Below, piece after piece: positions 4,254 through 39,200 of a stretch of DNA of 64,000 bases. Origin of the DNA: Rhizaria sp. SCN 62-66 (lineage: Eukaryota). Location of the stretch: contig MEDY01000132.1 in NCBI GenBank assembly GCA_001724265.1, positions 1 to 64,000 of the forward strand, written 5' to 3'. The notes under the pieces are model-generated. The model ran no database searches and had not been told where the DNA came from. It saw nothing but the letters and a program-made list of their open reading frames with translations. Within the stretch, counting starts at the first letter, position 1. Every line of letters starts with the position of its first letter. Position numbers and translations under genes: made by a program.

Positions 4254-7200
4254 ATGTCCCAACAGGAGACGCGCCGCGCGACGCCGAAAACGGCGCCCGC
4301 GGCCCCCAGCAAGGCAACGCCAGCACCCACCCAGCCTCCGTCCGGCCGCAGCGGCCACGGTCCCGAGCAAGACGACGGTAAGGAAGACCACCGCCGCCAC
4401 CACTCGCCCACGACCGACGTCCCCAAGACCGCGACGGGCCGCGCGACGGAGATCTCGCTCCCGGCCTGCGCGGCCAAGGGCATTCCCGCGGCGGCCGCGG
4501 CGCTGACTCATGATATCCGCCGCACCCCGGACCACTTCTCGAAGCAGCTTGCAAGCGGCCGCAAGGCGCTCAAAAGCGTCAAGCGCAGCAGCCGCGACGA
4601 GGACCGCTGCCGTGACGCGCGTCGCGCCTGTTTTGCTAAGCACGCACGCTACCGGTACGTATATGCGATCGCATTTGTTGAAGTGAAAAGCGATCTGGAG
4701 CGACTTGAAGAAACTTGAACGTGAATGGATATTCACAATAATCAACTTGAAACAGCGTTGACTAGTCGAAGAACCGGATCAAAATGTCTAATCTTTCTTT
4801 ATCGTAATGTTTCACCTTAATTTTAGTCTGCCTGAGACGTCTGAAGTGCTTTTCCGCCGCGGCGCTGACATCCGCCACTGCCCTCGCACTTTCCTCGCCG
4901 CCATCGAGCGCGGCCGCTCCTCTCTGCACAAGTCCCCGCTGTCATCGCTCATGAGCTTCCGCGCCAGCGCTAACCCCAACGCACCGACGTGGGCCGTCCG
5001 CCCTCTTCTCTCGCGTGCGAGTGCAATCTACCCCTCGGCGCTGTCGCTGCTGCCGCCCGCCGAGCGCGCCGCGCTGCGACTGAGGCTCACGCCGCTGGGA
5101 CTCGCACCATGGTTCTCGTCCTACCCGTTTCCCGCTATTGCCGTCACCAAGGGCGGTGCGGGCGGAAAGGCGGGCTCCGCCGCGCGCGTCGAGAAGCTAG
5201 CTCAGGCCGCAGCTGACATCGAGCAAGCTGCGGTAGACACGGCACTGGCGCGTCGCAACGCAATCCAGGAGTACTTAACACAAACGCGCAAGGCCAACCC
5301 TTTCCGCACCACGCAAATTGCCGAGGTGAGTAAGGAGTGCCCTGCGGATATCCGCATCAATTCTCCGGCGTTCCTCAAGGACATCAAGGCCGCCAAGTCC
5401 AAGCTGCGCGCAATTCCCACCACCGCGAATACCAGTAACCGCAATAGCCAGGACTTTACTGCCAGCATCATCCCTTTGCCGAGCTACAAGCCCGCCGCTA
5501 TCGCGCACAACCGCGGCCGCTTCAAGACCGACCTGTGGTTTGCCCGCCGCGACCGCGCAATCCAGACGCTGCGTTGCAACCCCGCCGACCTGCGGCTTAA
5601 CTTAAAGAGCTTTACGACCGCGATTAGCAAGGGCGGCAAGTCGCTCAAGAGCGTCAACGGATCCGTGCTCGACCGGCTTAAGCGTGTCTTCAGCTCCAAG
5701 GAGAAGGAAGCACCCCCGCCTAAGACTACAGCAACGGCAGCGGCGGCGGCGGCTGCGGCGGCGGTGAGCGAGCAGCGCGTGCACTTGCCGTGGCCTATCG
5801 CGGCCTCGCGCTCAAACTTCTGCTACCGCATGCGCCACAGCCACGGCCACGGCGACAAGGACAAGGGCAAGTCCAAGCAAGAGAAGCAGCCGGAGAAGCA
5901 GAACATCGAGCGCGGTCTCGGTGCGCTGCAACTGGGCGCTAACACAAACAATAGCGGCGGCAGTGGCGGGGATAAGAGTAAGAGCAACAAGAAGCACGTC
6001 ACCCGGTAGAGTGATTTGCCCCCCAGTACTTACACCAACAACACTTACACCAATATCAACGCTACCTCCGCTCGCAGCAGCACTGCAACGACTAAGCACC
6101 ACCCGGGCACTTACACGGGCCCAGGTACTTACATGGGTGAGGGCGGGAGCAGCGGCGAAGACTACGACGAGCAGGAGCAGGAGGACGGCGTCCATCCGAC
6201 CGCGCTGGCGGCGACGGCAGCGAGCACGCAGAGTATGCGGCCGGGCGCAAAGCAGCCCAGTGCGGCGACTGCGAGTGCACCTAGTACCCTAAAGCTCGTT
6301 TCGCTGCCGTTGCCACCGCCGTCCCCAGTCGCTGCTTCTGGCAAGACACAGCTACAGCCTCAGCCCCAGTCTCAGCAACAGCAGCAACAGGTGCAGTCGC
6401 AGACTTCGCAGCAGCAACAACAGCAACAGCAGATGCTTCCGCACATCGGTCTGACCGACTGGCAGCAAAGGCGTCTTGACGTCGCAATGCACCCCGGTTC
6501 CGCGCACGTCCACATTGCAGATCGCGCCAACGCCGACGCTATGCTCGCAAGCGGGCGGGGCCGAGGCAAGGCCGCAGCCATCCCGGCAACAGCCGCCGCA
6601 GCCCTCACGGCCACTGCCACTGCCGCTGCCACTGCTGTCGCTGCGACTGCGGCGAGTGCTGCTGTACCTGATGCGCTCCGCAACGTGCCGCCGCGCAATG
6701 TCCTCTCGCCAGACACCACTCTGGCTGACCGTTACGACACCTCCGTCTTCCCTCCTGACGCGCCCTTGGTCGCACTGTGGGTGCCGCGGGTCCTCGATTC
6801 CAGGCCCTTTGACGCGCGCTGGCGGCCTCACGAGTTTGCGCGCGGAATCCAAGCCGCGCGGCTTAACTTGGCGCACGTGCGGCGCAGAGACCGTGGGCTG
6901 GAGAGGTGGGAGGCCGCGCAGAGCGAGCGCTGGAGGGAAATCGAGAAATACGGAGACGTGCACACGAAGAGCAGGCTGCTCCGGCTTGGTTCTGCTGAAT
7001 TAGCGAAGGCGCAGAAGGAGGAGCAGGCAGCAGCCGAGGCCGCGACTGGCAGTGCGGGTACGAAAGCTAAATTCGGCGACATCGGCAGTGACAGTGACAC
7101 TCTGAGCGGCCCAACCAAGCATACGCCTGCTGCTCCTGCTGCTCTTGCGAAGACGCCCGCTGGCTCCGGTGCGACCGCGAATGCGCCAGCTCTTGCGGCC

Positions 7201-10083
7201 GCAGGTGCTCTTGCAGCTGCTAGCAGCCTCGCCGCAACTGGCATCGGCACTGGCGCTGGCGCTGGCTCTACTGCTCCCGCTCGGGACTCGAGTGTAAGTA
7301 CTGGGGAGGCGTCATCTCAGGGTACGCCGTATAGGTTCGACCCACGTATAACGGACCTCGCCGCCTTCGAGCGCGGCTTAACTTCCGTCAAGAAGACCCT
7401 GCACCAAGTCGACAGCAGCAGCGGCGCTGACGACGCCCAGGGTAAGGTTAAGGCTGGGGGTGGCGTTAAGGTTGAGCATGGTGGCGACGATCCGGACAAT
7501 ATCTACCACCACCCTGAGCGGCTGCAACCGCGGTCGGATATCGACCATCTGCGCAGTCACGGCACGCACCTGGGGCCGCACTACCTCATCACCACGCCCA
7601 CGGCGCACGCTGCCACCGCCGCTCTCACTCCCGCAGCCGCGACGCTGCCGTCGCGCCATAGTGATGAGGCGGGGCGGCGCGCTGGTGCCCACGACAGCGC
7701 TAGCGGCAGCAACTTCTGGCGTGCGCAGTATACAGCGGCTGCCATGGCGGCCGCGGCAACCGCAACGCGCGCTATCGCGTATACAGCGCGTCAGCGGCTC
7801 GGCCTGTCGTTCGTACAGGCGCAGCAGCCGCAGAGCATGCGCCACGGCGCCGCTGGTGTTAGTACCCCCTTAGGCGGCGTAAGTACCCCCTTAGGTGGTG
7901 TAAGTACCCCATCAGCCGTGAGTCTGGGCCGCGGCGGCATGAGCGCGCCCGCATTGCGCGAGGCGCTGCGCGAGCAGCGCCAGGAGTACGAGCGGCAGCA
8001 TAGCAAGCCGTTTGTCCCTCGCAGCGCGAGCAAGGCGGGTGAGCCACAGGACGGCGCAGCGACGGCCGGTCCGCCTAGCGCCGTTCGCGGTCAGTCTGAG
8101 TCGCAGTCGATAGCGCAGCTGCAGGCGGAGTCCAAGTCAAAGCAGGCGCAGCCACCGTCGCAGTCGACTGCTGAGCTCGCAAGCGCCCAGAGTCACAGTG
8201 CAGCGCACCACGCGGTGCAGAAGTACCGCCGCGACATCGGCCTGCCGACGACCAACCCGCCCCATAGTAGCAAGGCGGAGGGCCTTCACGTCGCTGCTGC
8301 TGACCGCACCGCCGCCACAGAGCCTGACTACCGCAAGGGATGCTATTTACGAAAGTTTTTCGATAGCAACGAGCTCGTCGGCGCTCTCAAGTACCAGCGC
8401 ACGCGTCTGCGGCACAACAAGACCCGCCCCAGCATCCACTGCGGGTACGTGCTCGGCCGTGTGTGCCGCACACTAGAGGCGCCGGTGTACGCGAGCGCGA
8501 CGAGCGGCCAAGCGCCGGGGCTGCGAAGGGGCGGCAGTCTTAGGGGCGCGGGCTCGGTCGGAAGTCAAGCCGCCACGGGTACCGAGCACGCGGGTACCAC
8601 TGACAGCAGCAGTGGCAACGGTGGTGCGGCTAGCGGCGCGGTGACTGGTTCCCGCGCAATCATCGGCGGCTACCGAGGCGGCAATTACACTAGCGGCAGC
8701 ATTGACAGGCCGCCGTCTGTGACCCGCAAGACCAGCGTCGGTGTCTATGCGACCAACGACACTCATGCGCGCACTTTCAGCGTCCCGAGTCACCCTACCG
8801 CAGCAGCAACAACAACAGCAGCAAACACTGGCGCTGGCGCTGGTGCTGGCCACGCTGGCGCGGGCGCGAGCGCAGGTGACAGCACTGATAGTGGTGCAAG
8901 CGCCGCGTCGGTCGGCGTTCTGCCGGTCACAGTCGCCATGGCGCGCGAGAACGCAAAGCAAGCGTCGCACGCCAGCGCGAGCGGCACGGGCACTGCAGCC
9001 AGCACGGCCGCTGCCAAGGCTGCCGATACGCGCGCTAGTTCCGGTGAAGGGCTTGTGACTGTGCGCGGGGGCTCGAAGCACAGTCCAAGACTTGACGCCA
9101 CGCCGGTGACGTTCGAGCAAGCTGAGGACGACGCGCGACGCCGCTTTTTCGCACACGAGCTCGAGGGCCTCAGCGACGAAGATGGCGCTGCGCCGAGTGC
9201 CGCTGCGCTCGCGAGCAAGGCGCAGACTGTGACCGGATCCAGCGCAGATAAGGCGATGGTGTCGGCGGCGGCGACAACTGCGGCGAGTGCGGCGGGCGCT
9301 AAGACAGCGTCCAAGAACGTAGCGCAAGTGCTAGGCGCGAAGATGTGGGAAGCGCCCACCGTCTCGTCACTGAACAAGACCAAGGCCGCCGCTGGCACGA
9401 CTGCAACCGCTGTCAACATCACACCGACCAGCGCCGGCGGTACTCACACGGCCTCCCCTGCCGCCGCTGCAGCATCTAACCTTAAAAAGCAACAAGGTAA
9501 GGGCAAGAAGCAGCAGCAACACACGCAGGCACAGGCGCAGACGCAATCTCAGGCACAGACGCAGGCGCAGGCTCAGTTGCAGGCGCAGCAAGAGCGGCAG
9601 CGCAAGCAGGAGAGCGACGCTGCGACCGCCGCGTTGCTGCAGCAGGCCAAGGAGCGCGCGTTAACTCAAGAGCGCGAAGAGCAACTGCAGCGCGACCGCG
9701 ACCGCGAGCTCAGTCTGTCCTCCGAGCGCCGCCGCATCAGTCAAGAGCGTGACCGTGAGCAGCAGCAACAGCAGCGTCAGCGCGACCGTGAGCGCGACCG
9801 TGAGCAGGGCGACCGTGAGCGCAGCCGAGGCAGTGTGTCGCGTGACCGTGAGCAGCGCATGTCCATGGCACACATGATCTCTGCATTGGCCAGCGCGCCG
9901 GGCGCCAGCCACGCTCTCGGTGGCCGCAGCAACAACGCCAGCGGTGACCGCGACCGCGATCGTGACCGTGAGAGTGACAGTGAGCAAGCTGTTCCTGGTC
10001 GTGGCGGCGGCGGCGGCAGCAGCGGCGGTGGCGGTGGCAAGGCAAGGGGCAAGGGGAAGGGTAAGGGACACAAGCGCCGGTAA
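4254..10083 (+). CDS. Multi-WH2-like repeat protein (~1885 aa if read through TAG 6007-6009); exons 4254-4654, 4827-10083
   Basis: Intron 4655-4826 (GTACGT...TTTTAG) joins ORF 4254 in frame to ORF 4807. ORF 4807-6009 and ORF 6016-10083 share a frame and are separated only by TAG. About 7 helix+L[KRH]x[VI] repeats lie on both sides of the TAG. RD/RE-rich coiled C-terminus; stop TAA. Confidence 0.65.
7855..7910 (+). repeat. 21-bp tandem repeat (~2.7 copies) encoding GVSTPLG
   Basis: GGTGTTAGTACCCCCTTAGGC GGCGTAAGTACCCCCTTAGGT GGTGTAAGTACCCC. Confidence 0.9.
9691..9972 (+). repeat. Degenerate CGYGAC/CGTGAG hexamer repeats encoding RD/RE dipeptide tracts
   Basis: Repeated cgcgaccgtgagc units; translation RDRDRE...RDRERDRE...RDRDRDRE. 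Confidence 0.7.
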
Positions 10084-10794
10084 GTACTTAAGTTTAGCGT
10101 CATCCTGTGTCTTTGCACAGTCTTGCTTGGTCATGTTGTTGTCTACAGGAAAGAATATGTGTGTATTTTCACTGACACAAACAATTATAGAAAGTGATGG
10201 ACAGAAAAAAGAACAGCATTGTTTGAGAATTTACCCAATCAAACATCGTAAGTACCCAGTGTGCACTTCGCACATCCATTGTTACATTGAGAACAAGAGC
10301 AGTCCACGAAAAAAACAAACAAAATGAAAAGAGTAACGTAAAACAAATAGCAAAGTCGCAAAAACAAAAGAGAGAAGTCGAGCGTATCAAGTGATGGATG
10401 AAGAGGTTATGATTCATGACCATGCGAAAGTTGCGGGCGCTAAGTAACGTAACGGCCCGTAACTCTGGTTACACATGCACTCGAGCTAGTGCAACGTAAT
10501 GAGGCAGAATTCAAAAGATGACAGAGGAGTACGCCCATCGAGTTGGTTAAAAAAAAAGAAGACATACGAATACAAAACAAAGCAAGAACAAACAGAAAAT
10601 GCACCACTGATTTTGAATAGTCTCGACGTGAATCAATCTATAAAGTCACATTGATGAACTGCGTTACGCATCACTCAAGCACAGGAAACAAACACAAAAC
10701 ACCGTAGATTTAGTATCGAGCAGCATTTACAAACGCCTTCAGTTAGCGAGCATCAACGCACTGGACTGACACGTATTGCTGAATATAGCAGTGT

Positions 10795-13700
10795 TTACCG
10801 GTGTTGCTGTTGCTGCTGCAGCTGTTGCTGTTGTTGCTGTTGCTGCATGTACTGCATCAGCAGCAGTTGCTGCTGCAGAGGGCTCGTGCCTGCCTGCGGA
10901 AACGCGGTGCCCGCGGAGACACCGGTGTTACCAAGCGCCGCCATAGCGCCATTCGCACCTAAACCGGGAGAGACGATCGTGCCGGCGCCTGCATTCGCGT
11001 TCGCCGCCACGGCGAGGTTGCTGCGGCTCCCTAGCGCACCGCCGAGGCCGCCGCCGTTGAGGCCGCCGCCGTTGAGGCCGAGGCCGAGGCCACCTGTCGC
11101 CGAAGACGTTGAGGGGGAAAGTGTGCTCGTGGGCGCAGCGCCAACGCTGTGATTGTTGGGAACAGTGGAGTTACTATTGGATGCGCCAGAGGCGGCCGCG
11201 AGTAAGGCTTGCAGCGCGCTCATGTTGCCGCCGCTGCCACTCTGGCCGAGCGCGTGGCCGTGAGCGACCGACTGCGAGGTACTTAGACCGCCACCCAAGG
11301 CACTTAGACCGGAGCCACCGCCGCCGCCACCACTAAGTGCAAGGGTGGACAACGGCGACACAGCCGCGTTGCCGGCGGCAAACGAGCCAGGACTCGTCGC
11401 GCTCACAACGCTGCTGCTCGCCGTGCGAAGAGAAGTTAAGCCGCCGCTACCAAGAGGGGCAACGGAAGCGTTGACAGCGGAAGGGAAGCGAGTGTGGGCC
11501 ATGTTTTGATTCATGCCAGCAGCGGCGTTGGCTTGCATCTGGAGTTGCTGCTGCTGCTGCTGAAGCTGCAACTGCAACTGAAGTTGTTGCTGCTGTTGTT
11601 GTTGCTGCTGCAGCTGTTGAATCATTTGCTGCTGCTGTTGGTAAGCAATCAGCGCAGCAAGGTCGTTCGCGGAAATACCGTCAATGCCGCCGTTGCCAAT
11701 GAACGTGCCCCCACGCTGCTGTTGCTGTTGCTGCTGTTGCTGATGTTGTTGCTGCTGCTGCAAAGCGAGCGCGGCGGCGTTGACGTTGAGCGGACTGTAC
11801 GCCCCGCCACCGAACGCGCTGCCCGCGCCGGCGAATCCGCCCGTGGCTGCGCCGCCGTTACCAGTGACACCGCCCAGTGCGCCGACGCCGCTGAGCGCGC
11901 CCAGCCCGAGCCCGGACATCCCGCCCGCGAAGCCCGCGGCGGCGGCGGCGGCCATCGCGGAGGAGGGCGTCCCCATCATGTCCGCGAACGCGCCGTTGCC
12001 GCCGGGGCTGTTGGGGCCTCCGGGTGCGGCGGCCGCAGCAGCGGCGGCGGCGGCGGCGGCGGAGGCGGCGGCGGCGGCGGCGGCCTTCTGCTTGGCCGTG
12101 CCGCCCGCCGCGCCTGCGCCACGCTTCGCCCCCGTCCCGCCGCTGTTGATACTGCTGCTGCTGCCGCCGGTGCCAGTGGTGAAGCCGTCGGCGCCGGTGT
12201 TAAGCGCCGCGTGCGCTGCGGCCGACGCCGCCGCGACCAGCGCTGCGGCGCGCGTGGGCGAGACAGCACCGCGCACGAACACGCCGGTGCTGGCGCCGGC
12301 GCCTCCGCCGGCTGCGCCGCCGCCGCCCGCGGCTGCGGACGTGATGCCGGTGCACGTGCGGATGTAGAACTCCTTACCGACTTGGAGGCGGCGCGCGAGG
12401 TCGAAGGAGCCCAGGGCGTCTTTGTTCTTGCTCATGCGCTCGGCCAGCTTGTCGGAGCGCTTCTGCTGGTACGCCTTGCAGTGCAGGTACTTAAAGTTGA
12501 ACACCTAAAAACAAGAGAGAGAATTGACAACATAAATGAGTGATTATAAAATAAAAACAAAAAGTAAACTTGGAAATATATCATTATGAAAATGCTTCTT
12601 GTGAGAAATTTGGAGTTGTGACGCAGAATGTGACAGAGATAGCTTTGTTTTCGTGAGTGTACGTACCCTGCCGTCGGCGCCAATGGGGCTGGTATGGAGC
12701 AAACAGTCAACCTCTGCACCGCGGCGGAACGTGCAGCAGCACATACCGGCCTGCGGCGGGTGCAGATCCGCCCACACCATGCAGTGCAGGCAATACCACT
12801 GCTTGGCCGTGATGTCGCCGAAGACGTTGGGGAAATAGGGTCCGAAGTACTCGCTTTGCACCGCGAGGCAGTCGCCGCAGATGGCGCGATGGCTGTGGTT
12901 AACGCCGTTGCACCACAGGTTCGTGCACCACAAACGCTCGGGGAAGAGGTACGACTTGGCGAGGCAGTCGCGCCGAACTTCGTCTTCGTCGTCGTTGTCG
13001 TTGTCATCTTCGCCGCCCGCACCGACGCCGCCACCGCCGCCGTCGCCGCCGTCGCCGTCGTCGTCGATCATTTCGTAGCCCTTGCTGCCCCCGGCCGCGG
13101 CCGCGCCGCCGCGGCGCTTAGACGCGGCCGCTGTCGCCCCAGTGGCGGCAGCGGCAGTGGCAGTTGCAGCGGCAGCGCCGGCTGCCAAGCGGCCGCGAGG
13201 GACGGCGGCGGCCGCGACGGCGGCGGCCGTGGCAGCCAGTCGCCCGCCGCGGCTGGAGCGGCCCTGCCCCCGGCCCGCCACCGGCCCACCAACACCGCCA
13301 GCAGCAGCAGCAGTCGCAGCGGCGGCGGCGGCGGTGGCGGCGGTGGAGGCAGCAGCAGAGGCTTCGGTGGCGGCGGGATGCGCTGGGTCAGACGGCGACG
13401 GCGACAACGCGGTCTGCGACACCGATGCCGCCGCAGCAGCAGGAGGAGACACGGCGCCCGCGCCAGCAGCAACAGCACCAGGAGCGATCGCTGCGCCTGA
13501 CGCAGACGTCGTCGCAGTTGCCAGCGTTGCGGCCGCGGTTGCGCTGGCGCTGGCATTGGCGGTGCTGTTGGTCGAGGGCGACTGTGAGCGCGGCGAGCTC
13601 GACTTGGGCGACAGCGACCGGGGCGACTTGCCCCCGCCCGCGCCGCCCGCGCCCACAGTGGTTCCGTTCCACATCCCGCCCGTGGCGGCGGCGTCGCGCT

Positions 13701-21886: not shown

Positions 21887-24140
21887 TTAGACGCAGTAGA
21901 GCTTGGTGTCGATCTCCGCGGGCACAGCGGTGATCTCGGTGCTGAGCTCCTGCTCGATGCGGTACAGAGCGAGGCGGTCGTCGGGCGTGATGAGGTTGAT
22001 GGCGATGCCGAGGTGGCCGAAGCGGCCAGAGCGGCCGATACGGTGGAGGTACGTCTCGGCTGACTTGGGGAAGTCGAAGTTGATCACCACGTTCACAGCC
22101 TGCGCGGCAACAACGAGAAAAAAACATGTGGATGAAATTTGAGTGAGTTGAAGCACAAGATAAAAATGACATAAACCCCAAACAAACACAATCGCGAGAC
22201 AACAACGTGGCGAACATATAAATCAATATTTCAACGATTCAGCACAGTGTCTACGTGGTTATATCTTGCTATAGGAGAAGATTGCGTACCTGGACGTCGA
22301 AGCCACGGGACAGAAGGTCGGTGGCGACGAGGTTACGCGCATTGCCCTGGCGGAAGTTGTGGAAGACCTTGTTGCGCTCCTGCTGGGTCATGCGGGCGTG
22401 GATGAAGTAGCAACTAGCGCCCATCTCAGTGATCTTCTTGGCCAGAAGCTCAACACGCTTGACAGAGTTGCAGAAAATCATCGCCTATACAGACATACAG
22501 AAGAGGAAAATACAGCACAAAAGAACCGAGAACGAGCAATAAAGTGAGAATTTAACGTCTGAGACAAACAGAGTGATAGTATCGCAAAGTGAATCAATTG
22601 GAGAGAATATTAAGTTGTTTTGTGGCGAATGCACGTACCTGGTTGATGGAGAGCTTGCTGAAGAGCGTGGCAAGGCAGTGCACCTTCTGCGACTCCTGCA
22701 AATACGCGTAAAACTGCGTAATACCCTTGAGAGTAAGCTCCTCCATGAGGTTGATCACTTCGCACTTGTCACCGAGCCACTGCTCCTGGAACTGCTGCAC
22801 CTCGGCCGGGTACGTAGCGGAGAATAGCATGATCTGACGGCCCTCCTTGGTGGCGTTGAGCACCCACTCGACGGGGGGACGGAAGTCGTCCGAAAGCAGC
22901 TTGTCGGCCTGTGAAAGAGATAATACAAAACGACAAAATGAAACAAATGGAGGGAATACAGATGTGATGGAGTGAGATAAATGGGTATGACAAAGTTAGA
23001 AGTTATGCGATGCGTATTATTTAGGCGAGATGTTGCCGCAGTAGCGTACCTCGTCGAGGACGACGGTGTGGACGTGCGACAGCAGACCCGGGATGCGCTC
23101 GGCCAGGTCCTTGAGACGCGAGGGGGTGGAGACAACGACGTGGGGCGGCACGTCAGGGTTACGGAGACGCAGGACGTCGTCCGCGGTGGATGTGCCGCCC
23201 ATGAGAGCAACGCGGTTGACGCCGACGTGGCGTGCAAGCGTCTCGACGGTGTTCGCGACCTGAAACATAGAAATCAGCGGATATAACACACAAGATGTCG
23301 GAGTGAGAAATTGAAACCAAGACATTAGAAAGAACTCGTAGGTATTCAGTACCTCATAAAGTTTCGCTTTAGATTGATGCGAAGCGATACATGGCTTCAA
23401 AACGTTGTTGTAGTTGGTAAGCGTACCTGGGTGGCGAGCTCGCGCATGGGGATGAGGATAACAGCCTGGACACGGCGAACCGAGGTGTCAATGCTCTCAA
23501 TCACGGGGATGACATACGACGCAGTCTTACCGGTGCCGTTCTTGGCACGGGCGAGGATGTTGCGGCGCAGCAGCGCGAACGGAATCGACTCAGCCTGAAC
23601 AGTTCCACAAAAGTAGCAAAATATAAAATAATGAAAGGTGAGATTTGAAACACAAGATGGCTATAGGTTGCAGTCAAACTAAGCCCGATGGTACGATTGA
23701 GGGACACCTATACGTAAAATTATCTTGTTATGTGAGTAATAATTGAACGAACCTGGACGGGGGACGGGTTCTCATAGCCGGCCTCGTAGATGGCACGGAG
23801 AACACCATCCTTGAGGTTAAAGTCCTCAAACGAGAGGTTGCGTGAGTTGATAACGTCTTCGGTCTTAACGCGCTCATCGGGAGCAGGGCGCTGGATCGAG
23901 TCGTAGAACGCCTTTGAAACGAACAAAAAATAGAACACAAAAAGTGTGAATTGACAGAAAAGATGAGTGCAATTGGTTACAAAACTCGATTACGCTGTAG
24001 TTATTAGGTCGAAACATCGCGGTGCGAGCTCTTAGCAGGATGCGGTGGGATATATGGTGTAAATAGATGTGTTTAGTGTGTTTACGTACTTGGCGATCCT
24101 CAGAGATCTGCGTCGTGGTGGCAGCAGCAGGAGCAGACAT
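21887..24140 (-). CDS. DDX6: DEAD-box RNA helicase DDX6/Dhh1 (421 aa); exons 24140-24090, 23911-23753, 23594-23427, 23259-23050, 22908-22639, 22484-22290, 22099-21887
   Basis: Q motif (GYENPSPVQ), [18 protein letters not shown] split by an intron, [57 protein letters not shown]. Six phase-0 GT-AG introns. Confidence 0.96.
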
Positions 24141-28400: not shown

Positions 28401-29503
28401 CAAATTCGACACAAAATGACGACTCTGAATTCGAGCACGACCTTGAATCGGACGCAGGCACTGCTAGTGACGGCAACGACAATCGCGAGGTTGTTGTCGT
28501 CAGTGGTGACAGCTCGATATTCCCGCTGTACCCGCGATCGCTGTCACAGCAACACGGCAAGCTTTTGACTGCTGTCACTGACGCCGTCAAAGCAAAGTCG
28601 CTTGCCAATCTGCGTGCGTACATTAAAAACGTGAATAAGCACTCCAAGAAGAAGCTGCTTGTGAGTAGTGATAGCGCGAGCTTTGACTTGGCTAAAAAGC
28701 CTTTGTTTGACGCTGATGATGCCAACGACGGGGCCAGTATTCCTAAGCCACCCGTAGACTGCCGCGGTGATCTAAGTGCTCCGAGCGATCTAAGTACCCC
28801 TGGCGCGGATGTTAGTTGCCCGCCTCCGACTGCGCCGGCTGATACCCACATTGCTCTTGTCGAGCTAGCATCCGGTGTCAATGGTAGTGGCAGTAAAGCT
28901 GTCAATTCTCACAACAACGCACTTAGGACTGCTGGCCTTCATCAGTCTATGACAGAGACAAGCTCTAATGCAAACAGTAACAGCGTCAAGAGCAGCAGCG
29001 ATGCTGGCAGTAGTGTCGGCAGTGCTTTTGTCGGCCGTCAGTGGCGCATGGCATCAGCGGTACCCATGGCTGCCAACCTTCGATTCACCACTTACATCTG
29101 CGATGGCGCCTTAGACGCGGAGGGGAAACCGACAGACAGCGTCAAAGACGCTGCTTATATTCAGCTGCAGCTGAATGAAGAAGTGCTCGAGTGGACGAAA
29201 GAGCTTTTAACTCCGCATGAGCAAGCGCAGTGTGGCCTCGGCTGGCAGTATCATCATGACAAGAACCTTAACACAAGCAATAACAATAACAGCAACAGCA
29301 GTCGCGCTGGCAGCAAGAGTAACGCTGACACTGGTGATGCAAGTAGCCTTGCTGTGAATAGTCGTAAAACAGTGCCTGGTTTGTGCCCGTTATCCGTCGT
29401 GCGTACTGCACTGCAGAGGCGGCTTGACTTTTTGGGCGTTGGCGACTGCAGTCAGACGGCATGGGACGACCACTGCGCCTATGGTGCATCAGTCCTCGAG
29501 TAA
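25472..29503 (+). CDS. MINPP1: MINPP1-like histidine acid phosphatase / phytase with N-terminal membrane anchor, 1343 aa, intronless
   Basis: VVARHGTRH (RHGxR, ~26237), LRFYDHC, FAHAETIMPLLSLLGI (HAE proton-donor motif, ~28208), WRMASAVPMAANLRF..C, QLNE, LCPL. Hydrophobic segment near the N-terminus. Confidence 0.85.
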   Translation: MNRDADSAYTRALPHRLQPQTRVLRIITVITAVILAVAILSSAFVLLKLDPSSLSALSLYSVVSLAATTNTNSSSSDGKSHTHSGNSNDPGNNDGHSAALISTAETGAKTVTATALTETKTETETTTTDTVTLAQLLPVLSNANALPLLQTMSPHRKRVTTSPDGNKAGSDHLVVYDSFLSHLATKTPYRNRIPLFNSQQQRQQQQRRRKQDLTPHDTATPGGKVTSTAGHSNDVHAEPVVTLGQCRPVHVEVVARHGTRHISKPKAVQSLRDTVAKAMEVKPPKGDEKAKPRFAHLCAQVKLKPQQGADAIVLSDKEKQHAKNRQQRLQRYCDTLDASKNKSNDNDNDDDESDDDEDSDYNDEDIDGSHGIASKTATNGLTLSDRVTDAASLFDKFKASTVGLLAPEGVRELHSIGKRLIFDLPTLFTPSLLLSAHNASGLNLSVPVSVSVATTFKQRTAQSRDAFLAGMCHGANVTHAQSATRDAVTSNHGDCASLLSVTAVPAFTETCTHTHHPLPGGLTSQSDGLTSRDNEKCAWHNSKLRFYDHCPRYKLYDQSAAVPFGRERNELIAKYFGSENSAGAAVLRRVFSKKALRKLIDKAAAKRYDDYMSRFCAGHEADDSEDSDNADDFDDDESNDDNEDAGGNDSNDNGDGDDDGDYITVSNTRSDMKFAAMRFQDTLDTAAHANQYPLRGGHKCGTHKLHRRLNFLSRAQARMKLLETMWKVCAVEATAQETSPQTARAATMTSENSLVTVWQLQQQAQSPRRSAPALWCTAFIDTASECKAVESKDGYAYQAFYGNKHPLLSSRREGTLTDRGPVGRKNDGNRRDLVSSCPGLVTRHQLEYFQDLASYTHKGPLFASAFAHSCPLVTTMLSDADNAVSAVAATTRLDFEQSGGRLNYPAARLDFAHAETIMPLLSLLGIQSTDVPLLTSPDTSTDNSHHAFPVAVDGGMAHGHSSARLNLKLPFNPPFMSNSTQNDDSEFEHDLESDAGTASDGNDNREVVVVSGDSSIFPLYPRSLSQQHGKLLTAVTDAVKAKSLANLRAYIKNVNKHSKKKLLVSSDSASFDLAKKPLFDADDANDGASIPKPPVDCRGDLSAPSDLSTPGADVSCPPPTAPADTHIALVELASGVNGSGSKAVNSHNNALRTAGLHQSMTETSSNANSNSVKSSSDAGSSVGSAFVGRQWRMASAVPMAANLRFTTYICDGALDAEGKPTDSVKDAAYIQLQLNEEVLEWTKELLTPHEQAQCGLGWQYHHDKNLNTSNNNNSNSSRAGSKSNADTGDASSLAVNSRKTVPGLCPLSVVRTALQRRLDFLGVGDCSQTAWDDHCAYGASVLE

Positions 29504-30006
29504 CGATAACAAACACCGCGCTCTTCGGATCGCTTGTAGAGCAGTGAAACGGCTGTTTTAAGTCCGGTCACACAGATTTGTGGTTTGAATGAGAATCGAT
29601 GTTATACCTAGAGATTTTAGAAGCGAATACAGAAATAAAACATAAAATACGACGAATATTGCCGGTTGTAAAAAGAGATAATCACATTTACCAAGTACAG
29701 TCGGTATTCTTAGTTTCTCGATTGTACTAACCACAAATAGTTTGCAAATATCTGTTTTTCAAAATTCTGTTTTATAATTATGAACTTTTCAACAAATAGC
29801 CCACAAACCGATGATATTAAAAGAAAAAACATACATTCTACAAGATATTCAAATTTTAATTGGAATGAACACGGTTAAGCACCGCACAGAGTCTTCAATC
29901 TTCTTTGTATCTTTGTATTCAGTTAAGCTTATCGCCCATCATGCCAACCACTAAACTTCCATTGCAAACACTTCAATCTATTTCGCAAGCGCCTTTCCGA
30001 GCTTGC

Positions 30007-31260
30007 TTACTCGCGCGGGAGCTTCGCGTACGCAGCCATCGAGTTGATCCCGCAGAGCCCGTCGCCGTAAGCGAGCCGCATGTGCCCTTCCTCACCCCAC
30101 GCCTTGCCCCACGACTGGCGCAGTGTGAAATACCGGCCTAAATCCGCAGCCGCAGCCTCCGTGATGTCATATCCGATAACGGCGAGCGCGGCGTTGGGCT
30201 CGGAGTCGCAGGGTCCGTTGAAGACGCCTCCGGTGTAGAACTGCATATCAGCGGGCAGGTGCATGCCGACGGCGACGACACCGTTGTAGACGATGGCCAT
30301 GAGTGCCTCGTCGGTGGCGTTGGCGGGCGCGATATACTCGGCCATAACGCCTGCGGGCGGGGAACACTTGGACTCGTAGCAGTCGCCGCGCGTGGCCTTA
30401 TAGGGGTACGTCGCCTCGTCGCAGATGCCGTTAGCGATGGCGTATTCGAACGTGCTGTCGATGAAGCCGCCGCTGCAACCAGCGTTGCCGTAAATCTCGG
30501 AGCAGTCGACGACTTGCTGCGTGGACAGCGAGGGGAGCTGGCCCTTAGTGATGTAAGTGGCCGCCTCGAGGCTCGCCATGGTCGCGAACGCGTAGCTTGC
30601 GGAGCAAGTAGACATGTCACGGACGGGGTTCAAAGCACCGACGAGACGCCAATCCTTGATCGCACCGGGAGGGTCGTCCTTGAGGTCACTAGCGGCGGCG
30701 GCGGCGTCGGTGAGATAGGAAGGGAGAGTGTTGGTGGTGCTGATGGTGGCGCCGACGCCCTTGGGCATCAGACGCGTGCTCTTGCGCTCAGAAGAATCAG
30801 CGTTGACATTAGAGTTCATCTTAGCGAGGGCAACGATATCGCTCTCAGAGAGGTCAAACCCAGGAATATTGCTAAACGAGGACGACAACGACTGGGACGC
30901 GCTTTTGGCGGCGGCATTGGTGTTGTCCTTGCGGAAGCGCGGACGCGCGAGAGGCTGGTCGAGGCGGTACATCTGCGCGAACTCGGCGGGGGAGAGATCC
31001 GCGAAGGAGTTGATGCCGAGAGTGTACGTGGGGCGGGGAACGCGGCTGTTGTGCGCGACAATGCGCGCAAAGTTAGCCTTAAAGGTGTTGAAGCGGGACA
31101 GAACCTGGGCAGACGGGTAGGTCTTGCTGTGGGCGGAGACAAAGCGGGTGAAGAGGAGCTCAAGCTGCTCGTCCGTCACGGTCGGGGGCGCGGCCGTGGC
31201 GGAAATGGTGTGAACGCACACGAGGGCGATAGCGACAAGGAATGCGGCAATGAACTTCAT
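30007..31260 (-). CDS. Secreted papain-family (C1A, cathepsin L-like) pseudoprotease with I29 prodomain, 417 aa
   Basis: Signal peptide MKFIAAFLVAIALVC; I29-like RFNTFKANFARIVAHN and GINSFADLS; mature DWR, SLSTQQVVDCS, GCSGG, YPY, SWGKAWGEEGH, CGI. Catalytic C, H and N positions read S, A and Q. Confidence 0.9.
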   Translation of the reverse strand: MKFIAAFLVAIALVCVHTISATAAPPTVTDEQLELLFTRFVSAHSKTYPSAQVLSRFNTFKANFARIVAHNSRVPRPTYTLGINSFADLSPAEFAQMYRLDQPLARPRFRKDNTNAAAKSASQSLSSSFSNIPGFDLSESDIVALAKMNSNVNADSSERKSTRLMPKGVGATISTTNTLPSYLTDAAAAASDLKDDPPGAIKDWRLVGALNPVRDMSTCSASYAFATMASLEAATYITKGQLPSLSTQQVVDCSEIYGNAGCSGGFIDSTFEYAIANGICDEATYPYKATRGDCYESKCSPPAGVMAEYIAPANATDEALMAIVYNGVVAVGMHLPADMQFYTGGVFNGPCDSEPNAALAVIGYDITEAAAADLGRYFTLRQSWGKAWGEEGHMRLAYGDGLCGINSMAAYAKLPRE

Positions 31261-32500
31261 TCCCAGAATCACTAGACAGAGCATGCAGTCAGAGTTTGAG
31301 TGCGGAAAGGCGAGGGAATGAGGCAGGGCGCGATAGGAAAGGGTAAGGTTGCGAGTGGGTTGACGTGGGTGAGGAGGGGGATTTTAAAAGCGGCTGTACA
31401 GCTACAAATACAAGTTTTTAGGACGTTACATTTTAAATTAGAATTCAATATAGAATTTAAACCATAGGTTGTGGTCGGAATCTGGATCTACAGACGAATG
31501 ACCGAAATATGAAGGTGCTCTTTTGAGACTTCATGGTTCGGTGATGCAATAGACAGTTGTGCCTGCAGTTGCACTTTATGAGAGGCTAGCCAACGTATAT
31601 CGACCACAGTACTTTGTTTGTCACGCGGCACAGCTTGAGATACTAATTAATTTTGCACAACACGCGTGGTTTTTCTTATAACTATGATATTGTGCTGTAT
31701 TCGCTGGCTTTGATAGAGTCCCAGTGGCTTGCTTCGATAAGACGCGAGCATGTTGACTTTAAGGACGCGCCTGAGACGTTTGACCAAGGCTGTTCAACAA
31801 AAAACTCAACCACAGACTTGCAAACCCAGCATAGAGCCACCTGCCGCACTGGTATCATCTATGAGCGTCCATGTGTTGCTCTAGGCAACGGGAAGTGAGT
31901 CCGTTAGTTAGCGTGGAAAAACCGTGCAAGGCGGCTACTAATATAAGGAAAAACGCGACAGTAACAGACTTCTACAGGAGTATGCGCAACAATACTCATA
32001 CTATTGTAGCTACACTATGATATAAAAGAAGAGCTCCGAGTGAGCCCTCGATTATATAGCGCTAGCCCTCAATGTTTGGCATGCAAGCCATAGAGCATCC
32101 GCAGACTCAACATCACAAAACCAGGGCTTAGACAAGCTAAAGAAGTCCCTGAGGCGAAGGCATTTTAAAGGAATACACATACACAAATTAGAACAATCAT
32201 AACAGAAGCTTGACGCTTCTGCCCAATACCTATCTTCTGAACTCATTTATCCTTTGGTTGTTTCACGCTCCCTCTTATCTGCTCTGGGCGGTCGAGCCTC
32301 GGTCAGTCCGCAAAGAAGCCTTTCGGCAAACGCATTACACGCCTGAATTTGAACGTAAGATCCTTATAAGACACTCTACCAGAGTATTGTGACAACAAAT
32401 CTACACATGTACTAAATTAAACTCCACAAATAGCTGATACGCTCTCTATGCATTCCCTCACGTGTTTTGCGCCTGCGCCCCCCCAGAACCCAGCGATACG

Positions 32501-35500
32501 ATGGGCAAGAAGGTCACCGCCCGGTCCACCGTCTCGCGCGCCCCTACGGCCTCGGCGTCCTCCGCAGGCGCCGGCTCTTCTCCCGCCGCGTCCTCGGGCT
32601 CCGATGCCGTCACGCGCCTGCTGACGTCCCCGAACCACAACCACCGCATCGACGGCTGCAACGCCATCGCGGGCTCCGTTTCCGCGGAACACATCCCCGT
32701 GCTCCAGTCCACGGGCGCACTGCAGCTGATGGTGAAGCTGCTCGAGGACAAGATGGTGCCCGTCGCCATCGCCGCCGCGGGCGCGCTGCGCAACGTGTGC
32801 GTCGAGGGCGGCGCCGCGGCGGGCCGCTTGCTGTCGTCTCACAAGGCCACCGCGTCGCTGCTGTCGCTACTCACTTTGCTCGACGCCGCGTTCGCCGCCA
32901 CGGTCAATGAGAAGGGCCGCCTTGTGCCCGCCGACGCCGCTGCGCCGCTGCACTGGTATGCGATCACCCCGGCGCAGGCATCGTCGCTTTTCACGCAGGT
33001 CATCACGCTTTTCACTAGCCTCTGCGAGGTCGCTCCGTCCGCCTCCGACGAGTTCACCCTCGCCCAGGTACGCTTTCATGCATATATCTCCGCAGAATCA
33101 AGGATTTATAGGGATATATTATATTTCCGACTAGTTGGTCATATTTTCTTTCTATGTTTTAAGTTATTTTTCCTAAGGCTGACATCTTGTGCTTCTATTG
33201 TTTCATCCTTTTACTACTACTCGTAGGCCACCTCGAACGGTGCCCACCTGACCTTCATCCTCTCCCGCTGCGCCTGCGTGCTTCCCCCCGCCGACGGTGC
33301 CGCTCCCGCCCCTGCCTTTACGGCCGACGAGGCGACCGCGGCTATAGACGCGCTGTCTTTCCTCCGCGCGGCGACCGTGGGCAACCCCGTCCTGAGCAAC
33401 GCGCTGGCCTCGCAGCCCACAGTCATGTCCGCGCTGCTGGCCACCGCGCACGGGCTCCCGGGCGCCATGGAGTCACTTAACGCCGACCTGTACACGCCCG
33501 CGCTGGCGGCGATCCGCGACAACGTCACCAAGCAGCTCCGCAAGAAGGAGGGCGCGTTCACTGGCGCTTGCACGCTCGCTCAGCCCACCCCGCTGCCCGC
33601 CTCCGCCGCCGCCGTCGCCGCGGCCGTGGTCGTCAATGTCGCCGCGTCGCTGCTCGACGGCCCCGCCGCGGCGGCCGCGCCCGCGGAGCTGCTGTGCTCC
33701 TGGCTGCAGCCCGCCGCGGCGTCGCTCGTGGCCATCATCTCCACGTTTGACGTTAACGCCAACGTCGCGCACTTGACCCGGGCGATGGCGCGCCTGCAGG
33801 AGCTGCTGCCGGCCGCGCAGTCGGGCGCGTTGGTTGCCATGGCCGACGCTGGTACGCCGTTTGCTGTCGGGGACGCTGCGCTGGATGCGAGTGATCCTGC
33901 GACTGCCGCCGCAGCCGCCGCGGCTGCCGCTGCCGAGGTATGTATAGTCTCTTATCCTTATCGCATTAGATCTTCACGCCATGGAATTCATTCAAGATTT
34001 CAAAGAAGTATTTCGATGTATTTTTTTCTTTAAAAAAATATCTAATTTAGCTTTTCTTTTCTGACAATATCCTATTGTATTCTTGTATTATAGGCCGCGC
34101 AAGAGGAGGCCGAGGCCGAGGCGGCCATCGCCCTGCTGGGCAACGACACCGCGCCCATGCCCGACTCCGCCGCCGCGTCGACCCCGGCCGACGCCGCCGC
34201 CGCCGCCGAGGCCGCGCGCGCCGCCGGGTTCAGTCTGGAAGAGCTTGAGCACCTCGAGCAGAGCCAGCAGCAGCACCACGACGGCGGTCACGGTCACAAC
34301 GGTCCTGTGAGCAAGGATCTCCCGCTGGATATGATGTGGAGCTCGGCCTGCTCGTCGCTGGTGCGTCAGTTCGCTGCCGCCGCGAGCGCCGTCCGCAGCG
34401 CCGTTGACGCCCTCGCCACTCTGCTGTCGCTGGTTCCTCACGCCGAGCAGATGGCGGCGACCAAGCCCAGCCTCGCTCCCACCGCGGCCGCCAAGGCCAT
34501 CTACGCCCTCGTCTCGGCGCTGTATTCGACCCCCGTGCAGGCCGTGAGCTCGGGCGTGGTTTCTACGAGCAGCGTCGTTGCCGTGACGGGCTCGCTCTGC
34601 GCGCTCCGCGTGTTGCCGTCGACCGCCTTCGCGCCCGACGCCGCTGCGGCCGCCACGGCCGCGCACGGCCACGCGCACTCGCTGCTCACGTGTATCTCCG
34701 CCGAGGCCATGACGGCACTGCTGGCTGTGGCCTCGCGTCACGCTTTGCACCAGCTGGGCGAGGTCTGCGACGTCCTCCGCACGCAGGCCGCGGTGAACAT
34801 GCTCTCGGCGGCGCTGTTCCTGCCGTCTGCCGTGTTCGGCGACAGCGACGAGGCCGTCGTGCTTGCGGTCACCCCGCTCATCGCGTCCCTGGGCGCCGTG
34901 CTGCTCTCGCATGACTCCGCGCCTCTGCTCACTCTGGCGACACCCGCCGAGGCCGCCGCCAAGGCCGCCGCGGCGTCGCTGGCGCCCGCCGCGGCCGAGC
35001 CCGCCGTCGCGTACGGCGCGACGACGGCCGAGGAGGCCGAGGCCGTCACGGGCGCGCTGCTGCACCTGCTCAAGCGGCCAGAGTACAAGCGTCTCCACGA
35101 CGCCGCGTGGACGCAGCTTCACGCTGCCGCCAAGGCTCCGGGCGCGGCGACCGCTGCGGCGGCGGCGGAGGCGGGATGCCCGCTGGTGGCCGCGTCCCTG
35201 CAGGCTGAGCCCGCTCTGCTGACGCTGCTGGCGAGCATCCTCACGGCCCCCAAGCTCAGCTGCGTCACCAGCGACCTGCGCACCCACTGCGCCGGCGCGC
35301 TCGCTGTGTATGCGACGTCCCCGGCGGCGGGCGGCGAGACGGTTGCGGGCGTGACGACCGCTATGCTTGCGGGGCTAAGTCTGGCCGCCGCGTCGCACAG
35401 TCAAGCCGCGACGCTGGCGGTGAGCGCGATGGATCTGGAGCTGGTGCACGAGATCGTCATGGGGCTGATCGACATGTACAGCGAAGATGACCGCTACGTG

Positions 35501-35728
35501 GAGGAATACAAGGCCGGCAACGTGACACGCACGCTTGCGCTGTTCGCGCCAGTCTATGCGACGGCTCTCAAGGATCTCAAGAAGAGGGTTGTGGAAGTCA
35601 ACAAGCGGCGCAATGCTGCCGGCGGCAGTGAGGAAGCCGCGGCGGCGGCGGCGCTGGTCGAGAAGACGGCCGAGGGCGTTGAAAACGTGCAGGGATTCGT
35701 CGGATACAAGAAGTCCATGAAGCTGTGA
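32501..35728 (+). CDS. HEATR3: HEATR3/Syo1-like ARM/HEAT repeat protein (970 aa); exons 32501-33067, 33227-33937, 34094-35728
   Basis: MGKK N-terminus, AAAGALRNVCVEGG, C-terminal GLIDMYSED and ENVQGFVGYKK resemble HEATR3/Syo1 motifs. Two phase-0 introns (GTACGC..TAG, GTATGT..TAG). Stop TGA. Confidence 0.75.
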
Positions 35729-36236
35729 GCTCTCATCGTAGTCAAAACCACAATCACATCTGTATACGTAGCATGTGGGTGACGCCGAGAACTTGCGGTG
35801 GACGACGGATGTATGAGCTAGGGCCAGTCAGGGACTAGTTAAGTATTGTCAAAAGTCACTTTTTATAAGAATAATGAGTAGTTGTGTTTAATTCACGCTG
35901 TCGTTACCAATACAGAGACAAATCGTTAATGTCGTAACAATTCACACATTTTTCGACCTGCAGAGAAGCAGGTGTTGTTTGGTTGCTATAGAGTTCGCGC
36001 CACATAATTAAATTTGTTTCAATAAAAGGAAACTGTATTCTTGTTTATAATATCTACGTAATAAAGTGACCTCGCTTTGATGCAACCAAAGCAAGTCTAA
36101 GTAACGATTGTAACACACAGCAATTCTCTGCGTGCGTTATAGACTATATATCTTACTAAATTAAGAGCAATGCAGATATTTGCGCACCGTTCTTGCGGTC
36201 ATTGCAATGTGCGTTGTATATTTACTCTTTGCACAG

Positions 36237-39200
36237 TTATTTGCGCCCTGCTCTGCCCCGTGCGCTGCCGCCGGCGCGCCCCCCGATGCCCGCGCCGGCC
36301 GGCTTGGGCCCCGGCGGCGGCGTCGGCGTCAGCATCTGCCTCTGCTGCTGCGGGTATTGCAGGTGGTGCTGCTGTCCGTGCGGGTCTGGGCCGTGGGCAG
36401 CGGAGACAGAGGGCGCGACAGCGGCGGCAGAGGGGGGCGCGGCGGAGAGCCAGCCGTAGCCGCTGGGCCGCGGCGGCAGCTGGAACGGCACTGCGGACTG
36501 AGGGTTGAAGGTACTTACACTGGGGGCGGCAGGGGTACTGACAGCGGGAGTCATGGAGCCGGCAGTCACAGGGGTGTTTGCACCATAGGCACTCGAGCGC
36601 GAGTGCGACTGGGACTGGGGTTGCGAGCTTGAACTCATGTTTGCTTGCGCAGCGGCTGGCGTGGGCACATTGGGGGTTGCACCGACCCTGTAGCCAACAC
36701 TTAGACCGGGGGTACTTACATCGCTAGGGCTGGCACTGCTCTTGCCAAGGGTGCTTAGAATGTCTAAGGGGTTGGCGCGGAACGCGCCACCACTGCCCAA
36801 CGCGACATTCGCAGCGGCGCTAACAGCCGCAGCAGCAGCGTTGGGACTCGCACTCGTATTGGCAGCGTTAGCGTTGACAGAGCTTGAGTTTAAGCTGGGA
36901 CTAACACGGTTACTGCTGTTAATGTTCATCTGAGTGCTTTGTTGATTGTTGCCGTTGTAAGGCGGGACTGGTGTTACGCTGCTGACTGTCACAGGCGTCA
37001 GTGCCTGAGGACTCACAGGCTGTGAACTGTTCACTGATTGAGTACTGTGCACTGTGTGTAGCAGGTGAGAGTTGTTCGCAACAATAGTGCCACTTGCATG
37101 GGGCGCAGAGAGCGAAGACGAAGACTGATTGCTCGAGTAAACACTCTGCTGCTGCTGCTGCTGCTGTTGCTGTGTAGTGTACGCACGTGCGTGAGGCTGT
37201 ACTGGTGCCTGCGACTGCGGCGGCGACTGCTGTGGCTGCAAAGCATGCGCAGAGTGACCGTGGGCAGCACTCGCATTCGCACTCGCGCTTGAGTGACCGG
37301 GAGCAGCTGAGTGACCATGAGCAGCAGAATGACCGTGGGCAGCGGGCGGTAAGTGCGACGTCACATGCACAGTGCCCGTTAAGCCCGTATTTTTCGCGAA
37401 CCGCTCCAGCCTCTGCACGGGATCCATCTGCTTTACTGCCTTGCTATGCACGATTTTCTCCATCTTTTGCTGCTTTTTGCGCATCGCAGCCAGAGTCTTG
37501 GGATCAGTAATCCCCCATGCGTTGAAACTGCTGTCTTTACTCGCACCATTCGCATTGACAGCAGGATTAGCGCTCGTGCCAGCGTTAGCGTGGGAGTTCG
37601 AATTAGAACTATTTTTGTTTGTGTTCACAGTCGTGGCAGCGAGTGACTGCGACTGCGCGTCAACGGGGGTATCCCAGCCAGGAGCACTTACATTGCCGTG
37701 CGAGGTACTTACATTCGCACCATGACCCCCATACTGAGACTGTGGCTGTGGCTGTGCGTCGGCGTACGCGTTAGCGTTGGTGTAGACCGCGGCAGAAGAC
37801 TGTGCGTTTGCACTGTTGTTGTTGTTCACAGGAGTGCCCCACCCAGTCGCCGGCGACTGACCCTGTCCCTAGCTGCGACTGTGCCCGTAGCTGTGACCGT
37901 GAGCAGCGGCACCAGCAGCAGCAGCAGCGGCAGCGGCAGCGGAGGGACCGTGGGCAGCGGTGGTGTGTGCATTGGGCAACACGAACACGTTGCTCCCGCC
38001 AGCACTCTGCTCATACTCGTGATCAGCCATATTGCTGTTACTGCTGCTGTTGTTGTTGTTGTTGTTGTTCATGCGTGATTTGAGTGCATCAACACTGCTC
38101 TTGGGCACACTGAACTTCACACTCTTACTGTTCACACCGCTCCCATTAGCAGCCGCAGCAGCAGCAGTGGCATTGGTATTAGCGCCGCCGCCGACACTGA
38201 TGCTGTGGAAGTCCTCCCAGTCTGCATGCGCCTCTGCATTCGCCGCCAGACGCTCAATCTGCGCCAACTCAGCGTCCAAATCCCCTTCTGCGTCGAGATC
38301 ACCTCCCCAGTCCATGTCCTGAAGCCGCTGTCCGTTGGCCTTGGCGCGCGCAATGCGCCGCCGGAGTAAATACCCCCTTACACGCCGCTGGATCTCCACC
38401 GCGGCCGCGTGGCGCAAGTTAAGCCGCTTCTGGGCGGCCGCCTCGACCCTTAGCCGCCACTGCTGGTACTTACCCGAGCCCACCCAGTCACGCCGCCGTA
38501 CACAGCGGCCGCGCCAGTGCCGCTGCAGCGTCGCCGCAGCTTCCGCGCGCCGCTTACCCAGTGCGGCGGCCGCGGCTTCGGCGCGGGCCTGCTCCTGCTG
38601 CCTTAACACGCGCAGTTGAGCTGTACTTTGCCGTTGCTGCTGGCCGCGCCAGTGCCGCTGCAGCACTAATGCAGCCGCCGCTTTCTGCGCCGCCTCCGCC
38701 GCCGCCGCCGCTGCAGCCGCCGCAGCCTGTTTGGCTGATTTGGCGAGTGAGTCGGCTTGTTTAACAGCGACGCGGAGGGCGTCACGGCGGATACGTGCCT
38801 TGCGAGCCCACTCTTGCTCGGCCTCCCAGCGCTGCAGCCGCTCGCGCTGTTCCCGCTGCTGCCGCTCCAGCTCCTGCTGCTGCTTCACCGCTTCTTCACG
38901 GCGCTTCCGCTCAACCTCCGCCGCAGCGGCACGCTCGGCCTCAAGCGCAGCCCGCCGCAGCCGCTCCTTGTGCGCGATCAACGCCTTGGCCTCAGCGTCT
39001 GCGCCGGCCATCGCAGCTTGAGCGGCGGCGCGGCGGGCAGCGAAGGCGGCTTGACTTTGCGCGATGTCGCGCGCAAAGGCAGCCGCGGCGGTGCGCTGGA
39101 GTTCGAAGTTAAGCCGCGTCTCAAGCTCGCGTAAACGGGCGGCGGCGGCGGCTTCGGCGGCGGCGGCAGCGGCGGCCTCGGCGGCAGCGGCCTCGGCGGC

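Follow-up and report, generated by a model that had tools for sequence, protein, structure and literature searches.

In-frame TAG codons in a pair of long genes from an uncultured eukaryote of wastewater: a lead towards a possible reassignment of UAG

In the rhizarian exLh UAG is read as leucine, and in Iotanema spirale it is read as glutamine (PMC5304391, accessible in part). The accessible part of that report gives 384 in-frame UAGs in 71 exLh genes, many of them at conserved leucine positions, and a set of terminators comprising 56 UAA, 15 UGA and no UAG. Highly expressed genes contain the fewest UAGs, and the authors take this as a sign of inefficient decoding; a tRNA-CUA was inferred and eRF1 was examined. 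The present report concerns positions 1 to 64,000 of contig MEDY01000132.1 (64,000 nucleotides (nt), hereafter the window), in which two long genes, G2 and G8, each carry a single in-frame TAG.

The window consists of nuclear eukaryotic DNA with exons of 55–70% GC and AT-rich introns and intergenic DNA. Near-identical contigs were found in bioreactor, wastewater and activated-sludge runs dated 2015–2025, one of which is a polyA metatranscriptome. Thus, the source of the window is an uncultured eukaryote from a metagenome.

As far as exLh is described in the accessible part of its report, the window shares with it the presence of in-frame UAG, UAA as the main and UGA as the minor terminator (56 and 15 in exLh, nine and two in the window) and the absence of UAG from the gene ends counted. 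The rarity of UAG in highly expressed exLh genes has its counterpart in the window, where UAG is seen only in long disordered proteins. Literature searches for an altered code in eukaryotes of wastewater, and for UAG in Sainouroidea, found nothing beyond the exLh report.

Reassignments of UAG that leave UAG and UAA with separate meanings are also found in phyllopharyngean and other ciliates, according to the accessible parts of PMC11687900 and PMC10553269. The window differs from ciliates in its GC-rich exons and its introns of 141–190 nt. Ciliate genomes are generally AT-rich and have tiny introns.

Two TAG codons within continuing coding sequence

Gene models were rebuilt from visible GTAYG...YAG introns, whose acceptors are pyrimidine-rich. 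The result is 11 spliced models with 14 introns and 16,398 codons, each with a length that is a multiple of three and with one terminal stop (TAA in nine, TGA in two, TAG in none). TAG 6007–6009 (+) and TAG 37871–37869 (−) are the only internal stops in these codons; no frameshift and no internal TAA or TGA is present in the 11 models. A preliminary description of the window had placed the two TAGs between long open reading frames (ORFs) of the same frame and had counted the same gene ends, and the rebuilt models agree with it on both points. The relevant parts of G2 and G8 are listed below, with the TAG written as an asterisk in the translated context.

4254–4654, + strand: exon 1 of G2, from the ATG at 4254 (sequence, frame-consistent junction)
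4655–4826, + strand: intron of G2, GTACGT...TTTTAG, AT-rich (sequence, frame-consistent junction)
4827–10083, + strand: exon 2 of G2, which contains TAG no. 1 and ends with TAA at 10081–10083
6007–6009, + strand: TAG no. 1, in frame at codon 528 of 1885 in G2, context KKHVTR*SDLPPS
40552–41159, − strand: exon 1 of G8; residues 155–187 (about 40599–40697) match the N-terminus of protein P0003 (LACFD.ETG, E 2e-4)
40381–40551, − strand: intron of G8, GTACGT...CTCAG, 171 nt, 38% GC
36237–40380, − strand: exon 2 of G8, which contains TAG no. 2 and ends with TAA at 36239–36237
38355–38669, − strand: calmodulin-binding IQ motifs that precede the TAG in G8 (Pfam IQ, E 9.8e-8)
37869–37871, − strand: TAG no. 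2, in frame at codon 1040 of 1583 in G8, context HGHSRS*GQGQSP
37392–37526, − strand: NAWGITDPKTLAAMRKK...QRLERFAK, the conserved motif that follows the TAG in G8, with matches in P0003, P0005 and P0006

An in-frame UAG within a continuing coding sequence is thus found in two cases. Frame 0 contains no stop in the 1357 codons that follow the TAG of G2 and in the 543 codons that follow the TAG of G8, whereas the other two sense frames downstream contain 25 and 67 stops in G2 and 23 and 15 in G8. The codon-usage log-odds for this frame are positive before as well as after each TAG. Furthermore, the GC content after the two TAGs is 0.63 and 0.58, compared with 0.34–0.41 after ten of the 11 real stops and 0.49 after the stop of G4. 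Since GC does not drop to the level of untranslated regions (UTRs), transcripts that end at the TAGs, which the preliminary description had considered, are unlikely.

Site 2 is covered by an 800-nt DNA contig of run X2 that spans 37179–37899 with no difference from the window, the TAG included. An identical contig is present in run X3, and the pieces of both runs are counted as one data set. Among the records read in X2 and X3, the longest has 192,873 bases. An RNA contig of 211 nt (record 29) from run X5, which belongs to another study and dates from 2025, ten years later, covers 37673–37883, likewise has no difference and reads TAG. X5 differs from the window at three other positions; therefore, TAG no. 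2 is common to slightly diverged strains. In the parts that they cover of a 13-kb stretch containing site 2, X2, X3 and X4 agree with the window at every base, apart from one 1-base deletion in a single X4 contig. Neither CAG nor a mixed letter, both raised as possibilities in the preliminary description, is found at site 2 in the contigs of X2, X3 and X5, which can hide minor alleles; the X4 pieces listed stop short of the site. Contigs were placed at a likeness of 90, where GC-rich low-complexity cross-matches from other organisms masked the spliced joints of true introns. A second X5 contig (record 27; 33873–34138) runs unspliced through the intron 33938–34093, which may reflect intron retention, pre-mRNA or DNA carry-over.

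For site 1, a metagenome scan with the N-terminal part of G2 yielded a sole contig (L001, 2307 nt). It corresponds to 4199–6505 of the window and is 100% identical, the TAG included; as a second assembly it could share the sample of the window. Base or assembly errors as the cause of the TAGs are unlikely, since site 1 recurs in L001 and site 2 in contigs of other runs including the RNA run. Each TAG is a genuine, fixed codon, and both of the long proteins concerned are largely disordered. In the ESM Atlas only the ORFs of the window itself were matched; they are predicted to be disordered, with a predicted local distance difference test (pLDDT) score of 0.39 and 0.42 at the two sites. The ESM Atlas ORFs 4807–6006 and 36240–37868 are prokaryote-style calls cut at the TAGs, and one of them starts at an ATG inside the G2 intron. 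Accordingly, public protein sets already hold G2 and G8 split and mis-started.

Distant homologues of G8 provide a view across its TAG. A full-library phmmer search with residues 595–1045 of the G8 exon-2 frame, in which the TAG was read as Q (table 15), gave four weak matches (E 2.4e-4 to 7.5e-4). Three of these (P0003, P0005 and P0006) align to NAWGITDPKTLAAMRKK...QRLERF, which follows the TAG; the remaining match, P0004, is to an N/S-rich stretch and was disregarded. In P0003 (1181 aa) and P0006 (863 aa) IQ motifs lie upstream of the WGI(T/S)DP...QRL motif within one polypeptide. The G8 copy of the motif, WGITDP...QRLERF, is intact, and its invariant columns are W, G, P, L, A, K, A, Q, R and L. 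Because the homologues join the IQ motifs and the downstream motif in one polypeptide and the N-terminus of P0003 matches exon 1, the ancestral coding sequence of G8 spans the TAG.

G8, P0003, P0005 and P0006 form a eukaryotic family with an N-terminal LACFD.ETG motif, a coiled coil, two to three IQ motifs and, at the C-terminus, the motif WGI(T/S)DP..L.AL.K....QRLE(R/K). Neither of the two terminal motifs belongs to a Pfam family, and a cluster look-up gave no names for P0003, P0005 and P0006. A homologue search with G8 residues 560–1250 returned no relatives, either because low-complexity words swamped the candidates or because relatives are absent; the same holds for G2 residues 1–330. Pieces of G8 and G2 had no relative among prokaryote genome contigs and viral contigs.

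Within G2 a repeated motif, F..(I/L/V)....L(K/R/H).(V/I), for example DIRINSPAFLKDIKAAKSKLRAI, is present in three copies before the TAG and in one copy after it. The copy after the TAG has a shuffle P of 0.0045, with a pattern that was defined only after the copies had been seen. By eye the motif resembles WH2; Pfam detects no WH2 domain. When the halves of G2 were compared with each other by BLASTP, the match was not significant (E 0.2). The metagenome scan, which yielded only the identical L001, contained no diverged G2 orthologue that shows the residue at the TAG.

Possible readings of the two UAG codons

The preliminary description had proposed that UAG is decoded as an amino acid. The part of this proposal that stands is that the TAGs are genuine and that coding continues past them; translation of the UAGs is what we infer. 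Organism-wide decoding of UAG, as a sense or leaky codon, is tentatively favoured and is given a chance slightly short of even. Ribosomes would decode UAG as an amino acid throughout the organism, fully or leakily, and UAA, less often UGA, would terminate translation. The very low usage of UAG (two in 16,398 codons) would then correspond to a young reassignment or to inefficient decoding, with sense UAG tolerated only in long, weakly constrained genes. Organism-wide decoding explains the two hits in 11 genes, the lack of other lesions, the intact G8 motif and the absence of TAG from gene ends.

A more specific proposal is that a GC-rich flagellated wastewater eukaryote has entered a UAG-only stop-to-sense reassignment that is still early or ambiguous. 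UAG would have been purged from gene ends and would be decoded inefficiently by a suppressor-type tRNA, and its tolerance would so far be limited to long, disordered, weakly constrained proteins. This proposal is possible but doubtful. The assignment of glutamine, which the preliminary description had derived from the context S*GQGQS, lacks discriminating support, since an ancestral CAG that mutated to TAG predicts the same S-Q-G-Q-G-Q-S pattern.

Several observations weigh against organism-wide decoding. Compared with exLh, as described in the accessible part of PMC5304391, the window has only two UAGs in 11 genes, about thirtyfold fewer per gene, and none at a conserved position. Both TAGs lie in non-conserved disordered linkers outside any conserved aligned position, and therefore the alignment of G8 cannot give the residue at its TAG. 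Instead of UAG at many positions aligned to one conserved amino acid, two TAGs in 16,398 codons, both in unalignable linkers, are found; CAG, by comparison, is used 629 times. The absence of TAG from 11 terminators has a chance of 0.17, 0.086 or 0.02 if the share of TAG is normally 15, 20 or 30%, and this is weak evidence when taken alone. Under random nonsense mutation, two TAGs out of two have a p of about 0.38. A tRNA scan revealed no tRNA genes in the window, and eRF1 is not encoded in it. The contigs over site 2 extend past the TAG by only 28 nt (DNA) and 12 nt (RNA) because a repeat at 37900–38077 cuts them, so that by the bridging criterion of 31 letters they cover the TAG codon without bridging it. 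Since X5 holds an unspliced intron, its TAG contig may be pre-mRNA or DNA. Finally, the run contigs were placed on the 13-kb stretch with site 2, and site 1 falls outside it.

The strongest competitor is that recently fixed nonsense alleles are present. Point mutations such as CAG to TAG, one in each gene, would have shortened both of these long disordered proteins in a wastewater lineage that is nearly clonal, and the downstream frames would be too young to have decayed. This is a real but lesser possibility. With CAG so abundant, 62% of the possible nonsense substitutions in these genes yield TAG and 38% yield TAA or TGA. The population is almost invariant (no base differences in X2–X4, three in X5), so a young lesion could be everywhere, and truncation may be tolerated at sites with pLDDT values as low as those in the two linkers. 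Counting both TAGs as stops gives nine TAA, two TGA and two TAG, which is unremarkable. G2 and G8 resemble ordinary nonsense pseudogenes in that each has a single in-frame stop and, for G8, in that homologues lack it. They differ from them in the number of hits, which at two in 11 genes far exceeds usual pseudogene rates as generally known, in that both stops are TAG, and in the absence of further lesions. Random gene-disabling lesions should also include frameshifts, but neither a frameshift nor another stop is found in the 16,398 codons. Both genes retain intact start codons and splice sites, no gene of the window ends in TAG, and G8 would lose a motif that is conserved in distant homologues and yet remains intact in G8. 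Furthermore, the covering runs contain no alternative allele at site 2, and L001 is identical at site 1.

Gene-specific programmed readthrough is improbable. UAG would be a normal terminator with short main products, and some ribosomes would make long isoforms. The frames are indeed maintained past the TAGs, and TAG would account for two of 13 stops, an ordinary share. No stable RNA structure is found downstream of the TAGs, however (fold z +1.12 and −1.10), and the two TAGs are followed at +4 by A and G, which also follow most real terminators of the window. A or G at +4 is a strong termination context. The extensions would amount to 1357 and 543 residues; the cellular readthrough extensions known to us are much shorter. 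In addition, the G8 homologues have no stop at that place, and two of 11 genes would be a very high rate.

Restorative A-to-I RNA editing that turns UAG into UGG, a process of the sexual stages in filamentous ascomycetes, is very unlikely. In Fusarium graminearum in-frame UAGs of otherwise intact genes are corrected in this way, according to the accessible parts of PMC4817773, PMC10776026 and PMC11156358, and 71 premature-stop pseudogenes are restored by editing (PMC10776026). G2 and G8 are similar in being otherwise intact genes with a single in-frame UAG. The 71 genes, on the other hand, are taken as a share well below two in 11, and the organism is of a different kind: editing of this type is known from ascomycetes, whereas the genome studied here encodes a Dzip-like ciliary protein and has introns of 141–190 nt. 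The sole RNA contig over site 2 reads TAG with no differences and thus provides no sign of editing, in one sample that is possibly pre-mRNA. Neither TAG lies in a hairpin.

The 12 introns of the window that were measured have 27–39% GC at 141–190 nt, with acceptors of 9.8–17 bits and, in eight of 12 cases, donors of 9.5–11.6 bits; three of the low donor scores are due to a one-base offset in the entered intron coordinates. The best splice candidates within 300–400 nt of the TAGs reach at most 3.8 bits at a local GC of 0.57 and 0.63. TAGs inside introns are therefore rejected, and their removal by splicing, which the preliminary description had considered, is unlikely for lack of usable splice sites nearby. 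Unusual GC-rich or very short introns, or assembly errors, have only a slight chance: site 1 does have a GT that shares bases with the TAG (G|GTAGAG), and splicing to AGs located 21, 72 and 75 nt downstream would preserve the frame, but the window's true introns are of the AT-rich type just described, the contigs are collinear through site 2 and each site has the same sequence in at least two independent assemblies. For all explanations, the estimates draw in part on what is generally known about the rates of pseudogenes and readthrough.

Other genes and terminators of the window

The terminators of the nine remaining gene models are listed below.

3031–3033, + strand: TGA of G1 (gene model, drop in GC)
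10795–10797, − strand: TAA of G3 (gene model)
21887–21889, − strand: TAA of G4, a DDX6/Dhh1-like DEAD-box helicase with seven exons (gene model)
29501–29503, + strand: TAA of G5 (gene model)
30007–30009, − strand: TAA of G6 (cathepsin L-like); the Pfam domain stops five residues earlier
35726–35728, + strand: TGA of G7 (gene model)
43233–43235, − strand: TAA of G9/10 (Dzip-like N-terminus, four exons)
50327–50329, − strand: TAA of G11 (gene model)
63574–63576, + strand: TAA of G12 (gene model)

In G9/10 (43233–49809, −) the ORF with the Dzip-like N-domain and a downstream ORF of 1088 codons are joined via three introns to one gene of 1994 codons. TGA 47788–47790 sits within an intron of this gene and was rejected as a gene end. 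Two further TAGs were rejected as in-frame codons. TAG 33224–33226 (+) is the acceptor of the ordinary G7 intron 33068–33226, and TAG 12507–12505 (−) is the acceptor of the G3 intron 12505–12666 (−), which contains an in-frame TAA and TAG.

All six introns of the helicase gene G4 (21887–24140, −) are in phase 0, most of them after CAG, and its intron density is far above that of the long neighbouring genes (0–3 introns). TAA ends nine of the 11 genes despite GC-rich third codon positions (about 0.5–0.85). As the UTRs and introns have only 27–41% GC, the GC content of the exons looks selected or driven by conversion rather than mutational.

Pfam matches in the window comprise a cathepsin L-like protease, a Dzip-like ciliary N-domain, the IQ motifs, a DEAD-box helicase exon and a weak histidine-phosphatase match; an Rfam scan of the window gave no matches. 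A search of 5.8 billion proteins with the cathepsin returned the protein of the window itself and relatives at 41% identity or less. Close relatives of the window proteins searched (G2, G8 and the cathepsin) are absent from the large protein collections, and the lineage appears to be unsampled outside wastewater metagenomes.

Implications for the evolution of UAG decoding

If the TAGs are plain nonsense alleles, the finding is ordinary. Reassignment of UAG is an open but testable lead: the organism is abundant in public wastewater DNA and polyA RNA data, and the question can be answered without culturing. Nuclear codes with a changed UAG and UAA as a stop are, to our knowledge, restricted to few lineages, all of them found after the change had been completed. 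If true, the window would provide a natural example of the ambiguous-intermediate state, which is usually only inferred. The lineage would then show the transition itself and would allow its order to be tested, that is, whether stop loss, a suppressor tRNA or changes in eRF1 came first.

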